From a virus, in the IMG/VR virus record IMGVR_UViG_3300042868_003730, positions 32,001 through 96,000 of that record: a stretch of 64,000 nucleotides of DNA; one strand, written 5' to 3'. Positions within the stretch are counted from its first letter, which is position 1. Each line of letters starts with the position of its first letter. Under the pieces are notes generated by a model. That model had not been told where the DNA came from, did no database searches, and saw only the letters and a list, made by a program, of their open reading frames with translations. Positions 23,555 through 30,267 of the stretch are shown piece by piece. Both the position numbers and the translations under genes were made by a program.

Positions 23555-23704
23555 ATGCAGAAGATCAATTTCGAGTGTGAGAGCTGTGATGCGAAGGGAA
23601 CTATCAGATTACCTTCGGAGTGTGATGGTTATAGAATAGAGGTCTGTCCTTGTTGTGCTGGTCCATTAGATATGGACGAGGACTACGAAGATGACGAAGA
23701 ATAA
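23555..23704 (+). CDS. small Zn-ribbon protein
   Basis: CESC...CPCC, acidic tail, AGGA SD. Confidence 0.65.
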   Translation: MQKINFECESCDAKGTIRLPSECDGYRIEVCPCCAGPLDMDEDYEDDEE

Positions 23705-24110
23705 TGGCTGGCATCTACTAGACGGCACTGTTCTCGAAACTCCTCCAACTGACGCAGTAGGGTTTGTTTACCGCATAACTCGGATCTCTGATGGTAAGTT
23801 TTACATCGGTAAAAAGAAACTTACCTTCAAACGATCTAAGATGGTAAAGGGCAAAAGGAAACGATTTACTATCGATTCTGATTGGCTAACCTACTACGGC
23901 AGTTCAGAAGAACTTAAAAATGATGTCAAATCTCTCGGAGAGGATTCGTTTCTCCGAGAGATTCTCCACATGTGTACTACTTTGAGTCAATGTAATTACC
24001 TCGAGACTATGGAGATCTTTAGTAATAGGTGTCTATTACGGGAAGATTGCTACAACTCCTGGGTATCCTGTAAAATTCATAAGAAACACGTCCTTGGAAA
24101 GATGCTTTAA
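23691..24110 (+). CDS. GIY-YIG endonuclease (EndoII/Seg-like)
   Basis: GFVY...FYIGKK, YYGSS, FLREIL, E, YN. Confidence 0.8.
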   Translation: MTKNNGWHLLDGTVLETPPTDAVGFVYRITRISDGKFYIGKKKLTFKRSKMVKGKRKRFTIDSDWLTYYGSSEELKNDVKSLGEDSFLREILHMCTTLSQCNYLETMEIFSNRCLLREDCYNSWVSCKIHKKHVLGKML

Positions 24111-24116
24111 GTTTAT

Positions 24117-24145
24117 TTTACATCTATACATATATCAGGCATAAT
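24117..24145 (+). promoter_or_regulatory. early promoter of the modification operon
   Basis: TTTACA-17bp-CATAAT; GAGGT SD before ATG24172. Confidence 0.7.
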
Positions 24146-24171
24146 TACTGAATCGTAACCTGAGGTGAAAA

Positions 24172-25524
24172 ATGGTAAGAAAAATTGTAGCAAATGAAGT
24201 TTATGACTCCAAGCATCTGCTGGGGACTTTCCTTGATGAATCTAATTACGATATTCTAATTGAGGAAGATTGTGATGTTTATGCACCTGCTGGATGCGAT
24301 CTAGCAACAACAGTTGATTGTAAGCCGCAATCTGATTGCGCAGAATGCCCTAAAGGTATTTCCGAAGATAGGGTTGCTTTCAAATTCCGAAAGAACTACT
24401 TCAGCAAGGAACAGCAACAAGCAGCCTATGAAGGTCTGCGTGCTGCAGCAACTCCGACTAATAATCGTGGTACAGCAGCGGGTACTGTTCGCGTCGGTAA
24501 GGCAGGTAATCGTGAGTGGGTCACGGAATACCAGGAAGCAGTAATCAAATACTTTGCTAAACCTTATACCACTATTACTGGTGAAGATCCGCTCGAAGAA
24601 CTATTTGCTAGGAAAGAGCAGATGGCTGAACCTGGTACCATAAACACAGTATGGAGAACAGGTGCTCCGATTGTGTTTGAAGAGTGGGTCGAAGCAACCA
24701 GAAAACTACCAGCAGAAAAACAAAAGTTAGCAGCGAAAAATATCCTTGAGGATAACATCTCAGCTACTACCTACGCCAATGAAGTGCTTAGTGGAATTGC
24801 TGGTGCTTTCGGAAGAACTCCCCGAGTTCCATTCGGTCGTCTTGCTGCATACAATGAGCGCAATCCAGATATGTTTGAAAGAGGTGTGCCATTCCTGCAG
24901 ACACTTGATCGGGCATTTTCTGAACTTATGCCAGAACGCCACGGAGCGCAAAAGAACTTTGTTGATTCATTGGATGAACATTTCCGAATCGCAGATACGG
25001 TGTTCACCACACTGACTATCAATAAGACGTTCCGTACTGCTGCTCACCTTGACGCAGGTGATTATGGCCCAGGATTCTCTAATCTTCTTGTTCTTTCAAA
25101 CGATGGTGATTTCACTGGTGGTTACTTGATTCTTCCTGAGTTTAGGATTGCAGTTAATGTTCGACCTGGCGATCTGTTGCTGATTGCAAACCATACTGCG
25201 ATTCACGGAAACACTCCGATCGTTCTTGGCTCAGAAGCCAGTGAGCGTATCTCCATTGTTGCTTACGCTCGTGAAGATCTTAAGTCACTTGGTACTTGGG
25301 ACTATGAACAGACTCGAAAGAGATACGTTGACAGTTGCAGGGATAATAAAGACCACCCGCACTGGTGGGATCGTTTCACTGGGGTATGGGCAGGAATGTG
25401 GCAATCCAAAGAATGGTATGATTATTTGGTAGCTGCATTGGGTGAAGATGAGGCTCGTGCTAATGACCCAGCTATTTTTGAGATCCACAATAATGGATCA
25501 GTTGGTCTTGAGTCCTTCTTCTGA
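24172..25524 (+). CDS. TET/JBP-family 2OG-Fe(II) dioxygenase
   Basis: FTTLTIN..FRTAAHLDAGD (HxD), GGYL, HGNTPI (H), RISIVAYARE (2OG Arg). Confidence 0.85.
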   Translation: MVRKIVANEVYDSKHLLGTFLDESNYDILIEEDCDVYAPAGCDLATTVDCKPQSDCAECPKGISEDRVAFKFRKNYFSKEQQQAAYEGLRAAATPTNNRGTAAGTVRVGKAGNREWVTEYQEAVIKYFAKPYTTITGEDPLEELFARKEQMAEPGTINTVWRTGAPIVFEEWVEATRKLPAEKQKLAAKNILEDNISATTYANEVLSGIAGAFGRTPRVPFGRLAAYNERNPDMFERGVPFLQTLDRAFSELMPERHGAQKNFVDSLDEHFRIADTVFTTLTINKTFRTAAHLDAGDYGPGFSNLLVLSNDGDFTGGYLILPEFRIAVNVRPGDLLLIANHTAIHGNTPIVLGSEASERISIVAYAREDLKSLGTWDYEQTRKRYVDSCRDNKDHPHWWDRFTGVWAGMWQSKEWYDYLVAALGEDEARANDPAIFEIHNNGSVGLESFF

Positions 25525-26204
25525 TGTGTGCAGTTATTGGCGCAACAATTAAGAATCCAAGTAGCGCAGATTTTCAAACACTGAAAAGAGTATTCCACGA
25601 ATCCCGCATTCGTGGAATGCACGCTACTGGATTATCATACGTCAAGAACAATAAAATCCACACAAACAAACTTCCAGTATCTGCTGATAAGTTTCCCTTT
25701 GATTGGGATGATTATGTCAATGAAGATGGCAATCTTTATTTGGTGGGTCACTGTCGTTACTCAACTTCAGACCTGCAATATAATCAACCCATTAACAATG
25801 ATACTATATCAGTAGTTCATAATGGTGTGGTGACACAAGAGTCACCAGAGAGCTGGAAAGATAATTATGGTTATGACTGCGTAACAAAGAATGATACTGA
25901 GTTGATCCTTAAATCATTAGAGGCAGATGAATCTCCTCTTGAGCACTGGTCAGAATCATCTCTGGCTGTTTGTGAACTATGGAATGATAAGAAGATTCGG
26001 TTCTACCGAAATGGAAAGCGACCAATTTATTTTACTTCAGTCGATCGCGGAACTATAATTACTTCTACGCGAGATATTGCTATTCGCTCTGGTTTAACTA
26101 ATACCACTGAACTTCCGTATAATACATACGCCACAATTAAGAGTGATGGACTAATTATGGAACAAGTAAGTGTAAACAATAAAGACTTACAGCATACACT
26201 ATGA
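25524..26204 (+). CDS. class II glutamine amidotransferase (Ntn hydrolase)
   Basis: N-terminal MC, RG.HATG, GHCRYST, NQP, HNG, NDTE. Confidence 0.88.
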   Translation: MCAVIGATIKNPSSADFQTLKRVFHESRIRGMHATGLSYVKNNKIHTNKLPVSADKFPFDWDDYVNEDGNLYLVGHCRYSTSDLQYNQPINNDTISVVHNGVVTQESPESWKDNYGYDCVTKNDTELILKSLEADESPLEHWSESSLAVCELWNDKKIRFYRNGKRPIYFTSVDRGTIITSTRDIAIRSGLTNTTELPYNTYATIKSDGLIMEQVSVNNKDLQHTL

Positions 26205-27079
26205 CAAAATACAATCCCAGTAACTTTACGTATGGTATGGAAATAGAGTGGGGTGATGTTCCTCGCTCTTTTGCGATTCCGGATAACCTTGGGTCGTGGG
26301 AATATTCTGAACGGGATATTATAAACCTAAGAGAACCATATCAATATGTCTGCGCTGATCCTCTTGGTGAGACACCACCAGTAGGAGGTGAGATCAACAC
26401 AAAGCCAACTAAAACTTGGCAAGAGCAGGTTGCTCGATACTTTGAGTTGAAAGAATTGTTTGAGTCAAATGGATCTTCTCCTACAGTTGGTGTAACTGCT
26501 CATACGCACATTCACTGTCGTGTTCCTGGGTTGAAGGATGATATCAATGCTCTAAAGTCTTTGACGAAATATATCAAAGAAAATCAGGCAGCAGCTATTG
26601 ATCGAATCTATGGGTTCTACGAACATAATCAGATGAAGGGTGCTAAGGGTGCCAAGATGTATTTGAAGTTCGATGGTGGTCGCCCAATGCCAGATTATAT
26701 GAGCGATAACATTATCAGCAAGGCAACTGACTTCGATTCATTCATCAAGATGCACGCTGCTGGTAAAGATGGTGTATCAATGGGTAGGCCATTTAGATTT
26801 GCCATCAATATGTATGCATTGAAGCATATTGACACAGTAGAGTTTAGGTTGTTCCGTGGTACATTTGACAGAAACCAACTTGAGTCTTGTTTCCGTTTTG
26901 TTCAAGACTTTCTTGATGCTGCGTTGAACGATGGTCCAACTGTTGATGAGTTGTTCTCAAACAATAATTACAATTTCCCTCCAATGATGTGGGATCTAAA
27001 TCAATTCATTGGTTGGGAGAAAACTAAACACCCAGAAGATCGTGGTAAGAAAGTAAGGACATTCGTTGAAGTTATCTAA
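26201..27079 (+). CDS. amidoligase (COOH-NH2 ligase, Amidoligase_2-like)
   Basis: YGMEIE, GEINT, HTHIH, INM, TVEFRLFRGT. Confidence 0.8.
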   Translation: MTKYNPSNFTYGMEIEWGDVPRSFAIPDNLGSWEYSERDIINLREPYQYVCADPLGETPPVGGEINTKPTKTWQEQVARYFELKELFESNGSSPTVGVTAHTHIHCRVPGLKDDINALKSLTKYIKENQAAAIDRIYGFYEHNQMKGAKGAKMYLKFDGGRPMPDYMSDNIISKATDFDSFIKMHAAGKDGVSMGRPFRFAINMYALKHIDTVEFRLFRGTFDRNQLESCFRFVQDFLDAALNDGPTVDELFSNNNYNFPPMMWDLNQFIGWEKTKHPEDRGKKVRTFVEVI

Positions 27080-27623
27080 ATGCACACGAGATAAATTTAT
27101 CTCAAGTATTAGCACAGCGAAAGAAGATAATTTTGCTCGCACATTTGTCGCTAAGGCAGATATGCAAGAACAGTGGGATTATTGTCTCGGGTTGTTTGAT
27201 AATACAGGAGATCTTATGGCAGCAATCATTACCACAATCTCCAAAAGGAAACCATTCGTAGCCAACCTTCAATTGTTGCATACATTCGCTAAGCATAGAG
27301 GGCAGGGTGCAGCTAGGTTGCTTTGTGAGCAATCTTTACTGAATGTAAAGAATCACGGAGCTGAGTATTTCCGAGTTTCTTCTGAGATCAATGCTGTTGC
27401 ATTCTATGAGAAGATAGGTTTCAAGTTTTGGGGAAAACAAAAGAGTGGTTGCCAACTTTCGATATTCCGAATTGATGGCGGCACATTCGCTGAGGGTGAT
27501 TATGATTATTATGATTCAATGATCCATAACGCAATCCATAAAAAAGGTAAGGGTGGGTGCGTTGAACTATTTGATATTGCAAAGAATAAAGACAATGGTC
27601 TTCAAGAGTTATTCTCAGCATGA
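27066..27623 (+). CDS. GNAT acetyltransferase
   Basis: HTFAKHRGQGAARLL (motif A), AVAFYEKIGF (motif B). Confidence 0.85.
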   Translation: MKLSKCTRDKFISSISTAKEDNFARTFVAKADMQEQWDYCLGLFDNTGDLMAAIITTISKRKPFVANLQLLHTFAKHRGQGAARLLCEQSLLNVKNHGAEYFRVSSEINAVAFYEKIGFKFWGKQKSGCQLSIFRIDGGTFAEGDYDYYDSMIHNAIHKKGKGGCVELFDIAKNKDNGLQELFSA

Positions 27624-28633
27624 ATCATAAAGAACTTCCAAGAGAATCATTTATTCGTTGGTATGCCTGGTCATTAAAATATAATGATTGTGACCCAGCT
27701 GTGTGGGCAACAAATTATCTAAACAAAAGATTCGAGCATAACTCTGAACAGAAACTGTGGCTCGCGTGGTTATACGGAAACACCTATCATCTGCCTACTG
27801 CTTGGGTTCTAATGAATGAGTTTCCTGATTTTGAATTAGCAACAGTTGACCGAACTACTCAATGGAATACTGCTAACTATAAAAGATTACGTTATCAGAC
27901 AGATACAAAATGGAACAAAGGACATCTACCAGTGATGTTCAAATCCTATCAAGAATTTATAGGTGAAGGAAGTCAACATGACCGTATTGAATCATACTAT
28001 GCTGGAAATGCGAAAGAAAATTTTGATTCTTTGTGGAATGTACTTAAAGGAAACCTTCATAAGTTTGGTCGTTATTCTACTTGGTTTTATATGCAGCATC
28101 TCAAACATACTGCTAGTGTTAATGTCGAGCCTACTTCTCTCATGTTGGATGATTATGATGGTTCCCGTTCTCATCGTAATGGGTTACTTATGGCCATCGG
28201 CAGGAATAACGATTATGATAGGAAACTTAGTACAGCGGAGTATCGAGACCTTGAGTCTATTAGCATTGGAATTATCGATGAGATGAGGGATAGGTTTCCG
28301 GAGTTAAAAGATCAGATTGATTTCTTTACAATGGAAACCTGTCTGTGCTCATTTAAGAAAATCTTCAGAGAACACCATGGTCGTTATCTTGGTTACTACT
28401 TAGATCGGCAGGCTGAAGAGATTATGCAATGCGAGAAAGATGGCTGGCATGGTATTGACTGGGAAGTTCTTTGGCAAGCAAGGAATGAAACAATTGATTC
28501 GCGATTGAACAATAAGAGAGGTATTATCAAAGAAAAGTTTACTTCTTTTGTTAGAGAAGGTAAGATTGATAATCTCGAGTGGATGTTCGATGATGAAGAA
28601 TGTAGTAATGTTAGTTTGGAGAAATTCTTATGA
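27620..28633 (+). CDS. amino acid:DNA transferase (aGPT-PPlase2-like)
   Basis: DCDP, WLYGNTY, FGRYSTWFY (HhH-like), ETCLCSFKK, RYLGYYLDRQ. Confidence 0.8.
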   Translation: MNHKELPRESFIRWYAWSLKYNDCDPAVWATNYLNKRFEHNSEQKLWLAWLYGNTYHLPTAWVLMNEFPDFELATVDRTTQWNTANYKRLRYQTDTKWNKGHLPVMFKSYQEFIGEGSQHDRIESYYAGNAKENFDSLWNVLKGNLHKFGRYSTWFYMQHLKHTASVNVEPTSLMLDDYDGSRSHRNGLLMAIGRNNDYDRKLSTAEYRDLESISIGIIDEMRDRFPELKDQIDFFTMETCLCSFKKIFREHHGRYLGYYLDRQAEEIMQCEKDGWHGIDWEVLWQARNETIDSRLNNKRGIIKEKFTSFVREGKIDNLEWMFDDEECSNVSLEKFL

Positions 28634-29175
28634 GAAAAATCGTAGCAGTTGGTGGTCAACCAGGAACAGGTAAAACTACTCTATTCCGTAAATTTATGGA
28701 AGATAAAACCTGGGAGAAGGTTGAGCCAAAGAAAATGCTTCCTGCTCTTTACTGCAAGGAACTTGATCTTTATGTTCTGGGTAAGTATGAAGAGGGTGAG
28801 ACGTTTGCTGGTACTGACCGATTAAGTATGGCTGTGCAGCCAATCGCTCAGTGTTTTGTTACTGAGACTAAATCGAATGTCTTGTTTGAAGGTGATCGAA
28901 TCTTTAATCAGTCCTTTCTGGAATTCGCTATGGCTCTTCCGGAAGTTGATCTTCAGGTTATCTATCTTAAGGTTTCGCCAGAAACCCTGACTCAACGATA
29001 CGCCGATAGAGGATCAGATCAGTCAGAGACTTTCCTAAAGGGAAGAGCCACTAAATATAATAACATACTTTCAAATTTTGAATTGATGCCCTATATTAAT
29101 GAGTTCGTGAACACTACATTAGAAGATCAATTGAAAGTTATCAAATTTATGGAAAATCATTTAATAGGTAAATAA
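28630..29175 (+). CDS. P-loop kinase, probable 5-hydroxymethyl-pyrimidine DNA kinase
   Basis: GGQPGTGKTT, GTDRLSM, LFEGDR; adjacent to the aGPT-PPlase2 gene. Confidence 0.8.
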   Translation: MRKIVAVGGQPGTGKTTLFRKFMEDKTWEKVEPKKMLPALYCKELDLYVLGKYEEGETFAGTDRLSMAVQPIAQCFVTETKSNVLFEGDRIFNQSFLEFAMALPEVDLQVIYLKVSPETLTQRYADRGSDQSETFLKGRATKYNNILSNFELMPYINEFVNTTLEDQLKVIKFMENHLIGK

Positions 29176-30267
29176 ATGCTTTCGCTAAAACAATATATAT
29201 CCGAGACAGAAAATAAAATGGCAGCATCTATCAAAAAGAAATTACTGACTCCGTCAAAGTTTGGCTTAAACACAATGAAGCCCATGACTTCGAGTCAAAT
29301 AGTGACTGTTGCCAGAAAGAGATTAATGTCGTTGGATATATCAGATGATGCTAAAAAATTATGTAATTATATAATTGATCAATCCATTGCTGGTAAAGAT
29401 AGTTTCCCTGCAAAATTTAGTGGTGTTTCTAATGAAGATCTTGGTGTTATAACTTCTGACTTCGGTGAGGTTGCTGGCGCCATTTACATGCTAAACTCCA
29501 AAATGGGTTACACTCATGCTAGATTTCCAATTGGAGAGAATGAGCGTCTCGTAGATTACTATCTTGTTAGGGATGGTATTGATGAGAAGATTTCTGCTAA
29601 AGCAGGTCAGGGTGGTGCACCTGCTCTTACTGCTGTAGAGAAAGCATTAGGAGATATTGACACCAAAATACTAAACGATACACAAAAGAAAGCATTAAGT
29701 GTCTTGGACTTTATCAATAAGGGTACTGTTTACGGTGGTGTTCTTGAAGCAGCTAAATTTCTTAAGATGCCTGGGTATAAGGCATTGATATCGATCTTGT
29801 CCAGAAAAGATTTGAAGACTGGTTATAATGCACCAAACATCCCTGACCAACAAGATCTTATCAGAGCTGTTGACGCATGCGGAACTTTTGACTCTTGCAT
29901 GAGTGAGTTCAAGCCTCTGTTCACTGCTGCCAATTTTGTATTAGGTGGTGAGGGTAAGATGAGATCTGTTTTTGATGGAAGCGCAGGATCTAGATATAAG
30001 AAATGGGGCATCCTACACTTTCCAGTTACTAGTGAAGTTATGGGGTGGTTAAATGATCCCGACAATGAAGCAAGAAATTTGTTGACCATGGCTGCTAGAA
30101 CTCTGACAGTTAGTCAGGTTTATTTTGACTATAAATCGAACAATTTTTCATATACAACGAAAACCTTTTCTGACGCTGACTTCAAATTCCATTCTCCGTC
30201 AAGTACACCAAACCCAGTGGGAAACAGAATTGGCATGAAAATGATCAAATCGCCGAAGAAAGAATAA
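29176..30267 (+). CDS. hypothetical protein, possible PD-(D/E)XK-like fold
   Basis: MLSLKQYISE N-terminus; DFGE...LVDY...ISAK. Confidence 0.5.
   Translation: MLSLKQYISETENKMAASIKKKLLTPSKFGLNTMKPMTSSQIVTVARKRLMSLDISDDAKKLCNYIIDQSIAGKDSFPAKFSGVSNEDLGVITSDFGEVAGAIYMLNSKMGYTHARFPIGENERLVDYYLVRDGIDEKISAKAGQGGAPALTAVEKALGDIDTKILNDTQKKALSVLDFINKGTVYGGVLEAAKFLKMPGYKALISILSRKDLKTGYNAPNIPDQQDLIRAVDACGTFDSCMSEFKPLFTAANFVLGGEGKMRSVFDGSAGSRYKKWGILHFPVTSEVMGWLNDPDNEARNLLTMAARTLTVSQVYFDYKSNNFSYTTKTFSDADFKFHSPSSTPNPVGNRIGMKMIKSPKKE

Follow-up and report, generated by a model that had tools for sequence, protein, structure and literature searches.

The 64,000-nucleotide stretch of viral DNA analyzed here, referred to throughout as the window, comprises bases 32001–96000 of a 147,921-bp IMG/VR record (IMGVR_UViG_3300042868_003730) that has direct terminal repeats and an estimated completeness of 100%. 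The record represents an uncultured T4-like phage of ∼148 kb. At positions 24172–29175 of the window it carries six overlapping + strand genes, with catalytic residues intact, surrounded by a replication set of the T4 type (ribonucleotide reductase, the gp59 loader and gp32). To judge from their sequences, these genes are likely to form one conserved cassette that would hypermodify thymine after replication, leaving it with an amide-bearing, acetylated side chain. As judged by the dioxygenase protein, the closest named phages are Stenotrophomonas phage DLP6, Caulobacter phage Cr30 and phage C48C1 (40–47% identity). The six genes are as follows (lengths in amino acids, aa).

24172–25524, + strand: TET/JBP-type 5-methylpyrimidine dioxygenase, 450 aa, predicted thymine dioxygenase (Pfam Tet_JBP)
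25524–26204, + strand: stand-alone class II (N-terminal nucleophile, Ntn) glutamine amidotransferase (GATase) domain, 226 aa (Pfam GATase_6)
26201–27079, + strand: glutamine-synthetase-fold carboxylate–amine ligase, 292 aa, divergent Amidoligase_2 subfamily (fold and profile relatives)
27066–27623, + strand: GNAT acetyltransferase, 185 aa, TTG start (Pfam Acetyltransf_10)
27620–28633, + strand: amino-acid:DNA transferase (AADT, formerly aGPT-Pplase2), 337 aa (Pfam ADDT)
28630–29175, + strand: P-loop kinase, 181 aa, predicted 5-hydroxymethyldeoxyuridine (5-hmdU) DNA kinase (Pfam Ploopntkinase3)

A first-pass annotation of the window, made from the letters alone, had described six open reading frames (ORFs) coupled through TGATG and ATGA overlaps, and both the coordinates and the junctions agree exactly with this description. 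One junction is TGATG (a 1-nt overlap) and three are ATGA; the remaining one is a 14-nt overlap, the downstream gene of which has a TTG start with an AAGGA ribosome-binding site ahead. The families assigned to the six products also stand, with five passing the Pfam cut-offs and the amidoligase borne out by its fold and its profile relatives. As had been stated, the cluster contains no pyridoxal phosphate (PLP) enzyme, radical SAM enzyme or glycosyltransferase.

Enzyme families and the origin of the hydroxymethyl group

The dioxygenase matches Pfam PF12851 Tet_JBP with 74.1 bits (cut-off 34.9, E 1e-20), and its Fe(II) ligands in the HxD...H arrangement (H292-x-D294 and H345), as well as the 2-oxoglutarate-binding arginine (R359), are invariant in 21 relatives. 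In VIA comparisons, its AF2 model (pLDDT 81) was closest to TET2 (Z 18.9), CcTet (18.0), CMD1 (17.5) and NgTET1 (17.3), with root-mean-square deviations (rmsd) of 2.9–4.6 over 221–287 aligned residues. The next-best match was ALKBH3 at 12.7, and Foldseek related the model to NgTET1 with an E value of 2.6e-10. The oxygenase therefore lies inside TET/JBP (Z 17.3–18.9 against at most 12.7 for AlkB-type enzymes), where the first-pass annotation had placed it. A fused ParB or other domain was considered for the 230-residue N-terminal region and was ruled out: residues 1–384 of the model align with TET2 and NgTET1 and there is no further Pfam match, so that this long region is part of the TET-type domain. 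Relatives of the dioxygenase in DLP6, Cr30 and S-CBWM1 bear the label 'SNF2 DNA repair protein', which was presumably inherited from JBP2.

The AADT matches PF18724 ADDT (aGPT-Pplase clade 2) with 84.5 bits (cut-off 26.2, E 1.2e-23). It has phrog_3271 in common with CBA120 orf248, a homologue of the ViI serine transferase (26% identity over 295 aa, E 5e-23), and gives a short match to the glycine transferase M6 gp51 (E 0.003). When aligned with M6 gp51, PaMx11 gp46 and CBA120 orf248, among others, residues E239 and C243 prove to be invariant, and the glutamate and cysteine are essential by mutagenesis in M6 gp51 and ViI gp247 (PMC8989533). The sequence thus appears closer to the ViI serine type than to the M6 glycine type, but an identity of 26% makes the donor only a lead. 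The kinase matches PF18751 Ploopntkinase3 (36.2 bits, E 5.9e-9), has the Walker A motif GQPGTGKT and belongs to phrog_800 (7.2e-16), as do the validated M6 gp54 kinase (2e-39) and the Cr30 kinase.

The GATase scores 33.9 bits against GATase_6 (cut-off 27, E 3.6e-8) and begins with Met-Cys; Cys2, Arg78 (in HCRYST), Asn100-Gly101 and Asp124 are invariant in 18 relatives. The GNAT scores 42.2 bits against Acetyltransf_10 (cut-off 23.6, E 9.6e-11), has RGQGAA as its acetyl-CoA motif and shows a weak likeness to the PaMx11 acetyltransferase gp48 (E 5e-4).

The source of the hydroxymethyl group was sought in the gene content of the whole phage genome. A ThyX gene is present (33.9 bits), and neither a ThyA-family gene (the dUMP hydroxymethylase type) nor a C5-cytosine methyltransferase gene was found in it; five related genomes, four of them complete, likewise have no ThyA-family or C5-methyltransferase genes. 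This content suggests that the phage obtains normal dTMP through ThyX and makes ordinary T-containing DNA, with the dioxygenase as the only visible route to a hydroxymethyl group, and it makes thymine in DNA, rather than 5-methylcytosine (5mC), the likely substrate. It agrees with the first-pass proposal that TET/JBP, and not a dUMP hydroxymethylase, would provide the handle after replication. Furthermore, the clade C TET/JBP enzymes of phages act as T-dioxygenases after replication and are linked to genes for a GATase, a P-loop kinase and an AADT (PMC13229309), and 5-hmdU DNA kinase (5-HMUDK) and AADT together put amino acids onto 5-hmdU (PMC8989533).

A dioxygenase acting on 5mC, with a cassette that hypermodifies cytosine instead of thymine, would have a precedent in the clade A/B phage TETs, which are 5mC dioxygenases and in some clusters are accompanied by P-loop kinases (PMC8256090). 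However, the absence of a C5-methyltransferase from all six genomes speaks against this substrate, the published clusters that combine GATase, kinase and AADT fall in the T-dioxygenase clade (PMC13229309), and AADT and 5-HMUDK chemistry has been demonstrated on 5-hmdU only (PMC8989533). Action on 5mC is therefore regarded as the least likely of the alternatives considered in this work.

A divergent amidoligase family and the conserved cassette

The third gene product scores only 13.4 bits against PF12224 Amidoligase_2, below the cut-off of 22, with the last 30 residues alone aligning; 522 close homologues are also without a Pfam label. A search of PDB chains with its sequence profile gave no meaningful match, and fold comparison alone worked. 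With the AF2 model (pLDDT 79.6, pTM 0.84), the top 17 VIA chains (Z 8.2–10.0) are all ligases of the glutamine-synthetase (GS) fold, namely YbdK, PafA, glutamate–cysteine ligases (GCL) and glutamine synthetases. The next chain (Z 7.1) is a GS-fold ligase too, the first unrelated fold appears at 5.3, and Foldseek is concordant. The best match is the YbdK-type structure 1tt4 (Z 10.0, rmsd 4.6, 210 residues aligned). Residues E14, E16, E64, H101/103/105, E214, R216 and R219 are invariant. A search with the family profile yielded 350 representative clusters among 1.84 billion proteins, and the relatives P0157 (42.6 bits), P0214 (33.7), P0147 (24.9) and P0249 (24.2) lie above the Amidoligase_2 cut-off while matching the window family profile with E values of 5.6e-63 to 4.7e-23. 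The GS-fold matches and these profile relatives together identify the third gene as a divergent amidoligase.

Gene fusions connect this family to the other activities of the cassette. Family members are fused to a class II GATase (P0214 and P0280), to a GNAT and an HMUDK_HMUD1 kinase (P0136), to a GNAT and an HMUD2 kinase (P0149), to an HMUD2 kinase (P0147 and P0171) and to a TET-associated glycosyltransferase (P0233 and P0249); behind the P0214 GATase–amidoligase fusion in contig L090, a GNAT gene comes next. In addition, relatives of the amidoligase occur inside PaMx11-like clusters (phage Simon and L091), together with a ThyA-type hydroxymethylase, a glycine-type AADT and a flavin adenine dinucleotide (FAD) oxidoreductase, and without a GATase. 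The Simon AADT is 40% identical to PaMx11 gp46, and L091 encodes an amidoligase–GNAT–kinase fusion. As far as can be read from these arrangements, the family is a nucleobase-tailoring ligase linked by gene fusion to 5-hmdU chemistry.

Several relatives have neighbourhoods of interest in their own right. In the unannotated sewage phage Simon (L087, PQ683277, 9147–21926), an amidoligase relative and a low-molecular-weight phosphatase (LMWPc) occupy the position of the acetyltransferase in PaMx11, the order being helicase, AADT, FAD oxidoreductase, amidoligase, LMWPc, HMUDK kinase, Nmad5, ThyA family and HD. Two other relatives (L088:5896–7008, from Vibrio phage 2.275.O, and L096:51–1070) adjoin 7-deazaguanine genes (QueF-like, QueC, radical SAM enzyme, GTP cyclohydrolase I and Ntn aminohydrolase), and the family may tailor deazaguanine bases too. 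A further one (L097:1738–2757) adjoins an HMUDK_hel gene; TAG has to be read as glutamine for its translation to agree with the database protein, which suggests a phage with a recoded stop codon that carries thymidine modification genes. Four more distant representatives have mixed neighbourhoods (2OG oxygenases and radical SAM, 7-deazaguanine genes, HMUDK_hel) that do not decide between the tailoring models.

Two alternative roles for the amidoligase and GATase were weighed against this material. If the dioxygenase oxidized thymine iteratively to 5-carboxyuracil, the pair could convert this base into 5-carbamoyluracil, beside or instead of the kinase/AADT branch. Iterative oxidation is possible for phage T-dioxygenases (PMC13229309), and in the 7-deazaguanine setting in which L088 and L096 are found, a carboxylate on a base is known to be turned into a carboxamide. 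However, the family also occurs in dUMP-hydroxymethylase clusters without an oxygenase, where 5-carboxyuracil cannot arise, it is fused to 5-hmdU kinases, and the six genes co-vary as a single cassette; this conversion is considered very unlikely. The other possibility, modelled on EgtA/EgtC, is that the amidoligase protects the adduct amine with a γ-glutamyl group, which the GATase-like enzyme would take off again without any transfer of ammonia. A best structural match of the YbdK/GCS2 type and a GATase domain without a fused synthase domain would suit such a pair, but a ligase fused to the hydrolase that undoes its product, as P0214 and P0280 would then be, is an odd construction. Moreover, all glutaminase residues are invariant, including the glutamine-binding Arg and Asp, and a true amidotransferase fits them at least equally well. 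Protection and deprotection thus seems quite unlikely. A complex prediction for the GATase and the amidoligase scored 0.01, which counts neither for nor against binding.

The cassette was followed through IMG/VR, where 115 stretches encode the amidoligase. Essentially all loci that are long enough, on ∼80 viral contigs, have the order TET–GATase–amidoligase–GNAT–(variable)–AADT–(variable)–kinase, an arrangement far beyond chance. The amidoligase is the most conserved gene, with 60–99% identity across loci. The dioxygenase of the window is 38–55% identical to those of loci L005–L084 in which the amidoligase is 60–86% identical, so either the dioxygenase changes far more quickly than the other cassette genes or it was exchanged. 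In a collection of 50,697 phage records, megablast with the cassette gave no match, a protein search with the amidoligase returned two distant records only, and no cultured phage with the full cassette was found.

Some relatives have additional genes within the cassette: a B12-binding radical SAM enzyme between AADT and kinase (L042:10478–11974), a small 2OG-FeII_Oxy_5 oxygenase (L030:10263–10826) or a 141-aa ORF without a family (L020:11787–12212). The final base probably differs from one relative to another. In the cultured phage Cr30 (L002, KF301602, 51410–68681), relatives of the dioxygenase (44%), AADT (28%) and kinase (41%) are spread over 9 kb in a cluster that includes an inositol-1-phosphate-synthase-like gene and has no GATase, amidoligase or GNAT; Cr30 DNA may carry a different TET-initiated thymidine modification.

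The ParB-like gene, polymerase-like tails and the flanks of the cassette

One further insertion was not mentioned by the first-pass annotation, which overlooked its absence from the window. In 34 related loci, a ParB-like gene encoding 413–501 aa lies between GNAT and AADT (for example L020:9470–10771, L083:9503–10822 and L080:9499–11004). It is fast-evolving, with 24–39% identity between loci whose flanking genes are 60–85% identical. Its profile matches Noc (E 1.3e-3) and ParB (E 0.016) over the region Q-x-R ... P-I-x-V ... G-E-R-R, where it has DGNHR instead of GERR. From this match, the inserted ORF looks like the 5mYOX-associated ParB described by O'Toole et al., although the relatives' proteins place the ParB motif ∼150 residues from the N-terminus. 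In the whole genome of the window there is neither a Pfam ParB_N match nor a match to the profile of the relatives' ParB-like proteins, and the near-twin contig L005 is ParB-less as well. Among 44 distinct dioxygenases with an assessable interval, the gene is present with 21 and absent with 23; on a quick dioxygenase tree its distribution needs nine changes, at least six of which are forced by well supported branches. By its gene content, the window is a ParB-less variant of a cluster type called ParB-dependent in PMC13229309.

The missing gene raises the question of whether the cassette of this phage is crippled, with the dioxygenase inactive on double-stranded DNA (dsDNA) for want of its activator and the downstream enzymes left without a substrate. 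The presence of a ParB-like gene in relatives and its absence from this genome are in keeping with such a loss; furthermore, 5mYOX enzymes of the ParB-dependent kind require their partner to act on dsDNA, and in E. coli no activity was detectable for some clade C1 enzymes that lack a ParB (PMC13229309). However, more than half of the assessable loci manage without the gene and its presence has changed repeatedly, the six cassette genes are all intact, tightly coupled and invariant in their catalytic residues, and near-identical L005 retains the ParB-less form. A crippled cassette is therefore considered unlikely, and the window copy would work without the ParB-like partner that is found in about half of its relatives.

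A second feature of the locus concerns the C-termini of three of its proteins. All non-nested ORFs of the whole genome with a length of 80 residues or more, 204 in number, were scanned for the motif [SGTN]-L-[DEQ]-x-[FL]-[FLIM] no more than two residues from the C-terminus. Four carry it, namely the dioxygenase, the GNAT, the AADT and the family-B DNA polymerase, whereas at random internal positions of the same proteins the mean was 0.05 and the maximum 2 in 2000 trials. The tails encoded in the cassette are as follows.

25504–25521, + strand: dioxygenase tail GLESFF, conserved in 21 of 21 relatives
27597–27620, + strand: GNAT tail GLQELFSA, with similar L-x-[ED]-x-F tails in most relatives
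28613–28630, + strand: AADT tail SLEKFL, present in 8 of 8 AADTs of the window lineage

The polymerase (834 residues, G000:C1:138560–141064, outside the window) ends in SSLESFFG. The tail is absent from the AADTs of M6, PaMx11, CBA120 and Cr30 and from the ParB-like proteins. In T4, gp43, gp55 and gp33 bind the gp45 clamp via interchangeable hydrophobic–acidic C-termini (PMC2988020). With this precedent, the polymerase-like tails suggest that the dioxygenase, GNAT and AADT may be tethered to the sliding clamp. A similar ending, PLEFFMG, is found in a 248-aa ORF at G000:C1:107332–108078 that has no Pfam match.

Two features may mark the limits of the transcription unit.

24117–24145, + strand: sigma-70-like promoter match TTTACA-17-CATAAT (10/12), 27 nt upstream of the first gene; consensus match only
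29176–30267, + strand: ORF7, 363 aa, no assigned family, beginning at the base after the kinase stop codon

The early promoter of the first-pass annotation does correspond to a consensus match at 24117. However, sigma-70-like sites are as common in shuffled sequence as in the region (22.1 expected, 24 found), so that the promoter is a consensus match only, if a plausible start of the unit. The operon had been described as ending with the sixth gene, which overlooked the co-oriented ORF7; the next promoter-like site (30268) comes only after ORF7, and the unit may thus hold seven genes. ORF7 has no Pfam or PHROG match. Its protein atlas matches are viral hypothetical proteins and a weak lead to an R.HinP1I-type restriction endonuclease (0.91, 146 shared features) that is below the trustworthy level, and its weak homologues sit further downstream in relatives. 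ORF7 is probably co-transcribed with the cassette, yet it is not a conserved member of it. The gene immediately upstream, at 23691–24110 of the window, encodes a homing endonuclease of the SegE-type GIY-YIG family (Pfam 1.7e-31). Relatives have a DnaB-like helicase as the upstream neighbour, which indicates that the left junction was rearranged here.

Proposed pathway and its place among known systems

The pathway proposed for the cassette begins with three steps that are likely, with good confidence in each, on the grounds of family membership, conserved catalytic residues, genome content and the published enzymology of relatives. The TET/JBP dioxygenase would oxidize thymine in phage DNA to 5-hydroxymethyluracil (5hmU); the P-loop kinase, by homology to M6 gp54, would phosphorylate the hydroxymethyl group; and the AADT, with its conserved essential Cys and Glu, would displace the phosphate through a C5-methylene intermediate and install a nucleophile, most likely a free amino acid. 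The fourth step is the least certain. Here, the GATase and the GS-fold amidoligase would act as a glutamine-dependent and ATP-dependent amide-forming unit on the carboxylate of the adduct, and the GNAT would acetylate its free amine. This would give a side chain with an amide, an acetylated nitrogen and probably no charge; with serine as the donor, the product would be the N-acetyl-serinamide ether of 5hmU. Since the dioxygenase, GNAT and AADT would probably ride the sliding clamp via their tails, modification would be coupled to replication.

Several observations weigh against this pathway. The kinase has no match (E ≤ 0.01) to PF18748 HMUDK_HMUD1 or PF18747 HMUD2, the models named for 5-hmdU DNA kinases, which are matched by M6 gp54 and CBA120 orf243, respectively. 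The distance of the AADT from the ViI type is such that the donor is not readable from homology. The dioxygenases of the window and L005 share a long branch (1.59) away from their relatives, some ParB-less clade C1 enzymes had no detectable activity in E. coli, as noted above, and the site at 24117 has nothing beyond its consensus match to mark it as a promoter. Finally, the amidoligase relatives that lack a GATase and are accompanied by an FAD lyase fit the acylation of an amine better than the amidation of a carboxylate.

The last point leads to the most serious competitor for the fourth step. Ammonia from the GATase could be used by the AADT to make 5-aminomethyluracil directly; the amidoligase would then join a free carboxylic acid, such as the γ-carboxyl of glutamate or another amino acid, to the DNA-borne amine, and the GNAT would cap the new α-amine. 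In PaMx11, the FAD lyase removes the carboxylate and gives 5-aminomethyl-dU (PMC8989533), so that the GATase and the FAD lyase look like alternative routes to the same amine, and in phage Simon and L091 the amidoligase relatives do stand beside a glycine-type AADT and this lyase. In addition, a GS-fold ligase typically activates a free carboxylate of the glutamate type and tolerates a range of amines, some of them macromolecular, as is the substrate of PafA. On the other hand, the GATase always adjoins the amidoligase and has been fused to it in two separate lineages (P0214 and P0280), two genes separate it from the AADT, with the ParB-like gene in addition in relatives, and its long forms, of which only three were recovered, include one fusion to a GNAT-type domain and none to an AADT. 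The use of ammonia is known for no AADT. Direct formation of 5-aminomethyluracil is therefore possible but doubtful. Amidation followed by acetylation has a slight edge over it, in keeping with GATase and amidoligase genes that always lie side by side and have fused on two independent occasions. The neutral adduct of the first-pass annotation, with an amidated carboxyl and an acetylated amine, is thus favoured by the fusions and disfavoured by the FAD-lyase clusters without a GATase, and is one of at least two readings that fit.

Each part of the pathway has counterparts in known systems. The virome contigs of Lee et al. (2021, NAR; PMC8989533, Fig. 2, sequences 22–25), which combine TET_JBP, 5-HMUDK and aGPT-Pplase2, closely resemble the cassette of the window: the dUMP hydroxymethylase is absent, the TET_JBP gene adjoins the kinase and transferase genes, amidoligase and glutamine amidotransferase genes are present as companions of unexplained function, and oxidation of thymine in situ was inferred (PMC8989533). 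Those contigs were listed only; the window adds a complete 148-kb T4-like genome, the fold and fusions of the amidoligase, the GNAT and the clamp-like tails. The ParB-dependent T-dioxygenase clusters of clade C1, such as 5mYOX176/ParB176 (O'Toole et al., 2026, PNAS; PMC13229309), belong to a ParB-linked clade that is consistently linked with GATases, P-loop kinases and AADTs, as is the TET/JBP gene of the window. That work ends at 5hmU, and it differs from the present case in its ParB gene, which the genome of the window lacks.

In the ViI/CBA120 pathway to 5-(2-aminoethoxy)methyl-dU, a kinase is likewise followed by an AADT, and the AADTs share a PHROG and keep the essential Glu and Cys. However, the 5hmU of ViI is supplied before replication by a dUMP hydroxymethylase and is tailored by a PLP decarboxylase, whereas in the window it would come from TET/JBP and be tailored by the GATase, amidoligase and GNAT; moreover, the CBA120 kinase is of the HMUD2 family and that of the window belongs to another Pfam family. 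The PaMx11 pathway to 5-acetylaminomethyl-dU (gp46–gp49) also uses a kinase, an AADT and an N-acetyltransferase, the last of which acts at the end on a DNA-borne amine. It differs from the window in its glycine-type AADT, its FAD lyase, its lack of a GATase and an acetyltransferase that is barely similar. In the synthesis of base J in kinetoplastids (JBP1/2 and a glucosyltransferase), TET/JBP oxidizes thymine in DNA to a 5hmU handle for a bulky group, but that system is eukaryotic, adds glucose and has no kinase or transferase step. The short hydrophobic–acidic C-terminal tails of T4 gp43, gp55 and gp33 (PMC2988020) have their likeness in the tail that three cassette enzymes have in common with the phage's own polymerase; in the window, however, the tails sit on base-modifying enzymes and are predicted clamp ligands.

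The first-pass annotation knew of no biochemical description of this gene combination while allowing that surveys might have listed it, and its novelty was overstated: TET_JBP, kinase and AADT contigs with amidoligase and GATase genes are already present in published virome surveys (PMC8989533 and PMC13229309). The interest of the window rests instead in the identity of the final base, in a cassette that is naturally ParB-less and in tails that resemble the polymerase's. The combined proposal, in which the three tailed enzymes are recruited to the clamp so that hypermodification is coupled to the fork, and in which the GATase–amidoligase–GNAT trio yields an undescribed thymidine derivative, an N-acetylated amino-acid amide, is offered tentatively and as less probable than the cassette assignment itself.

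Hypermodified thymines shield phage DNA from restriction enzymes and CRISPR nucleases, and the pathways that make them are a source of enzymes acting chemically on DNA polymers. The TET-initiated branch has been demonstrated only up to 5hmU, and the product of the GATase, amidoligase and GNAT is a directly testable question. For this purpose, the window provides a minimal contiguous six-gene cassette in a complete genome, and a ParB-less variant that can be compared with its ParB-containing relatives. Clamp-bound DNA-modifying enzymes have an analogue in DNMT1, which is recruited by PCNA. If clamp recruitment is true, the cassette would be a phage counterpart of the DNMT1–PCNA system, and riding on the clamp could explain how a post-replicative pathway covers the whole genome before packaging.

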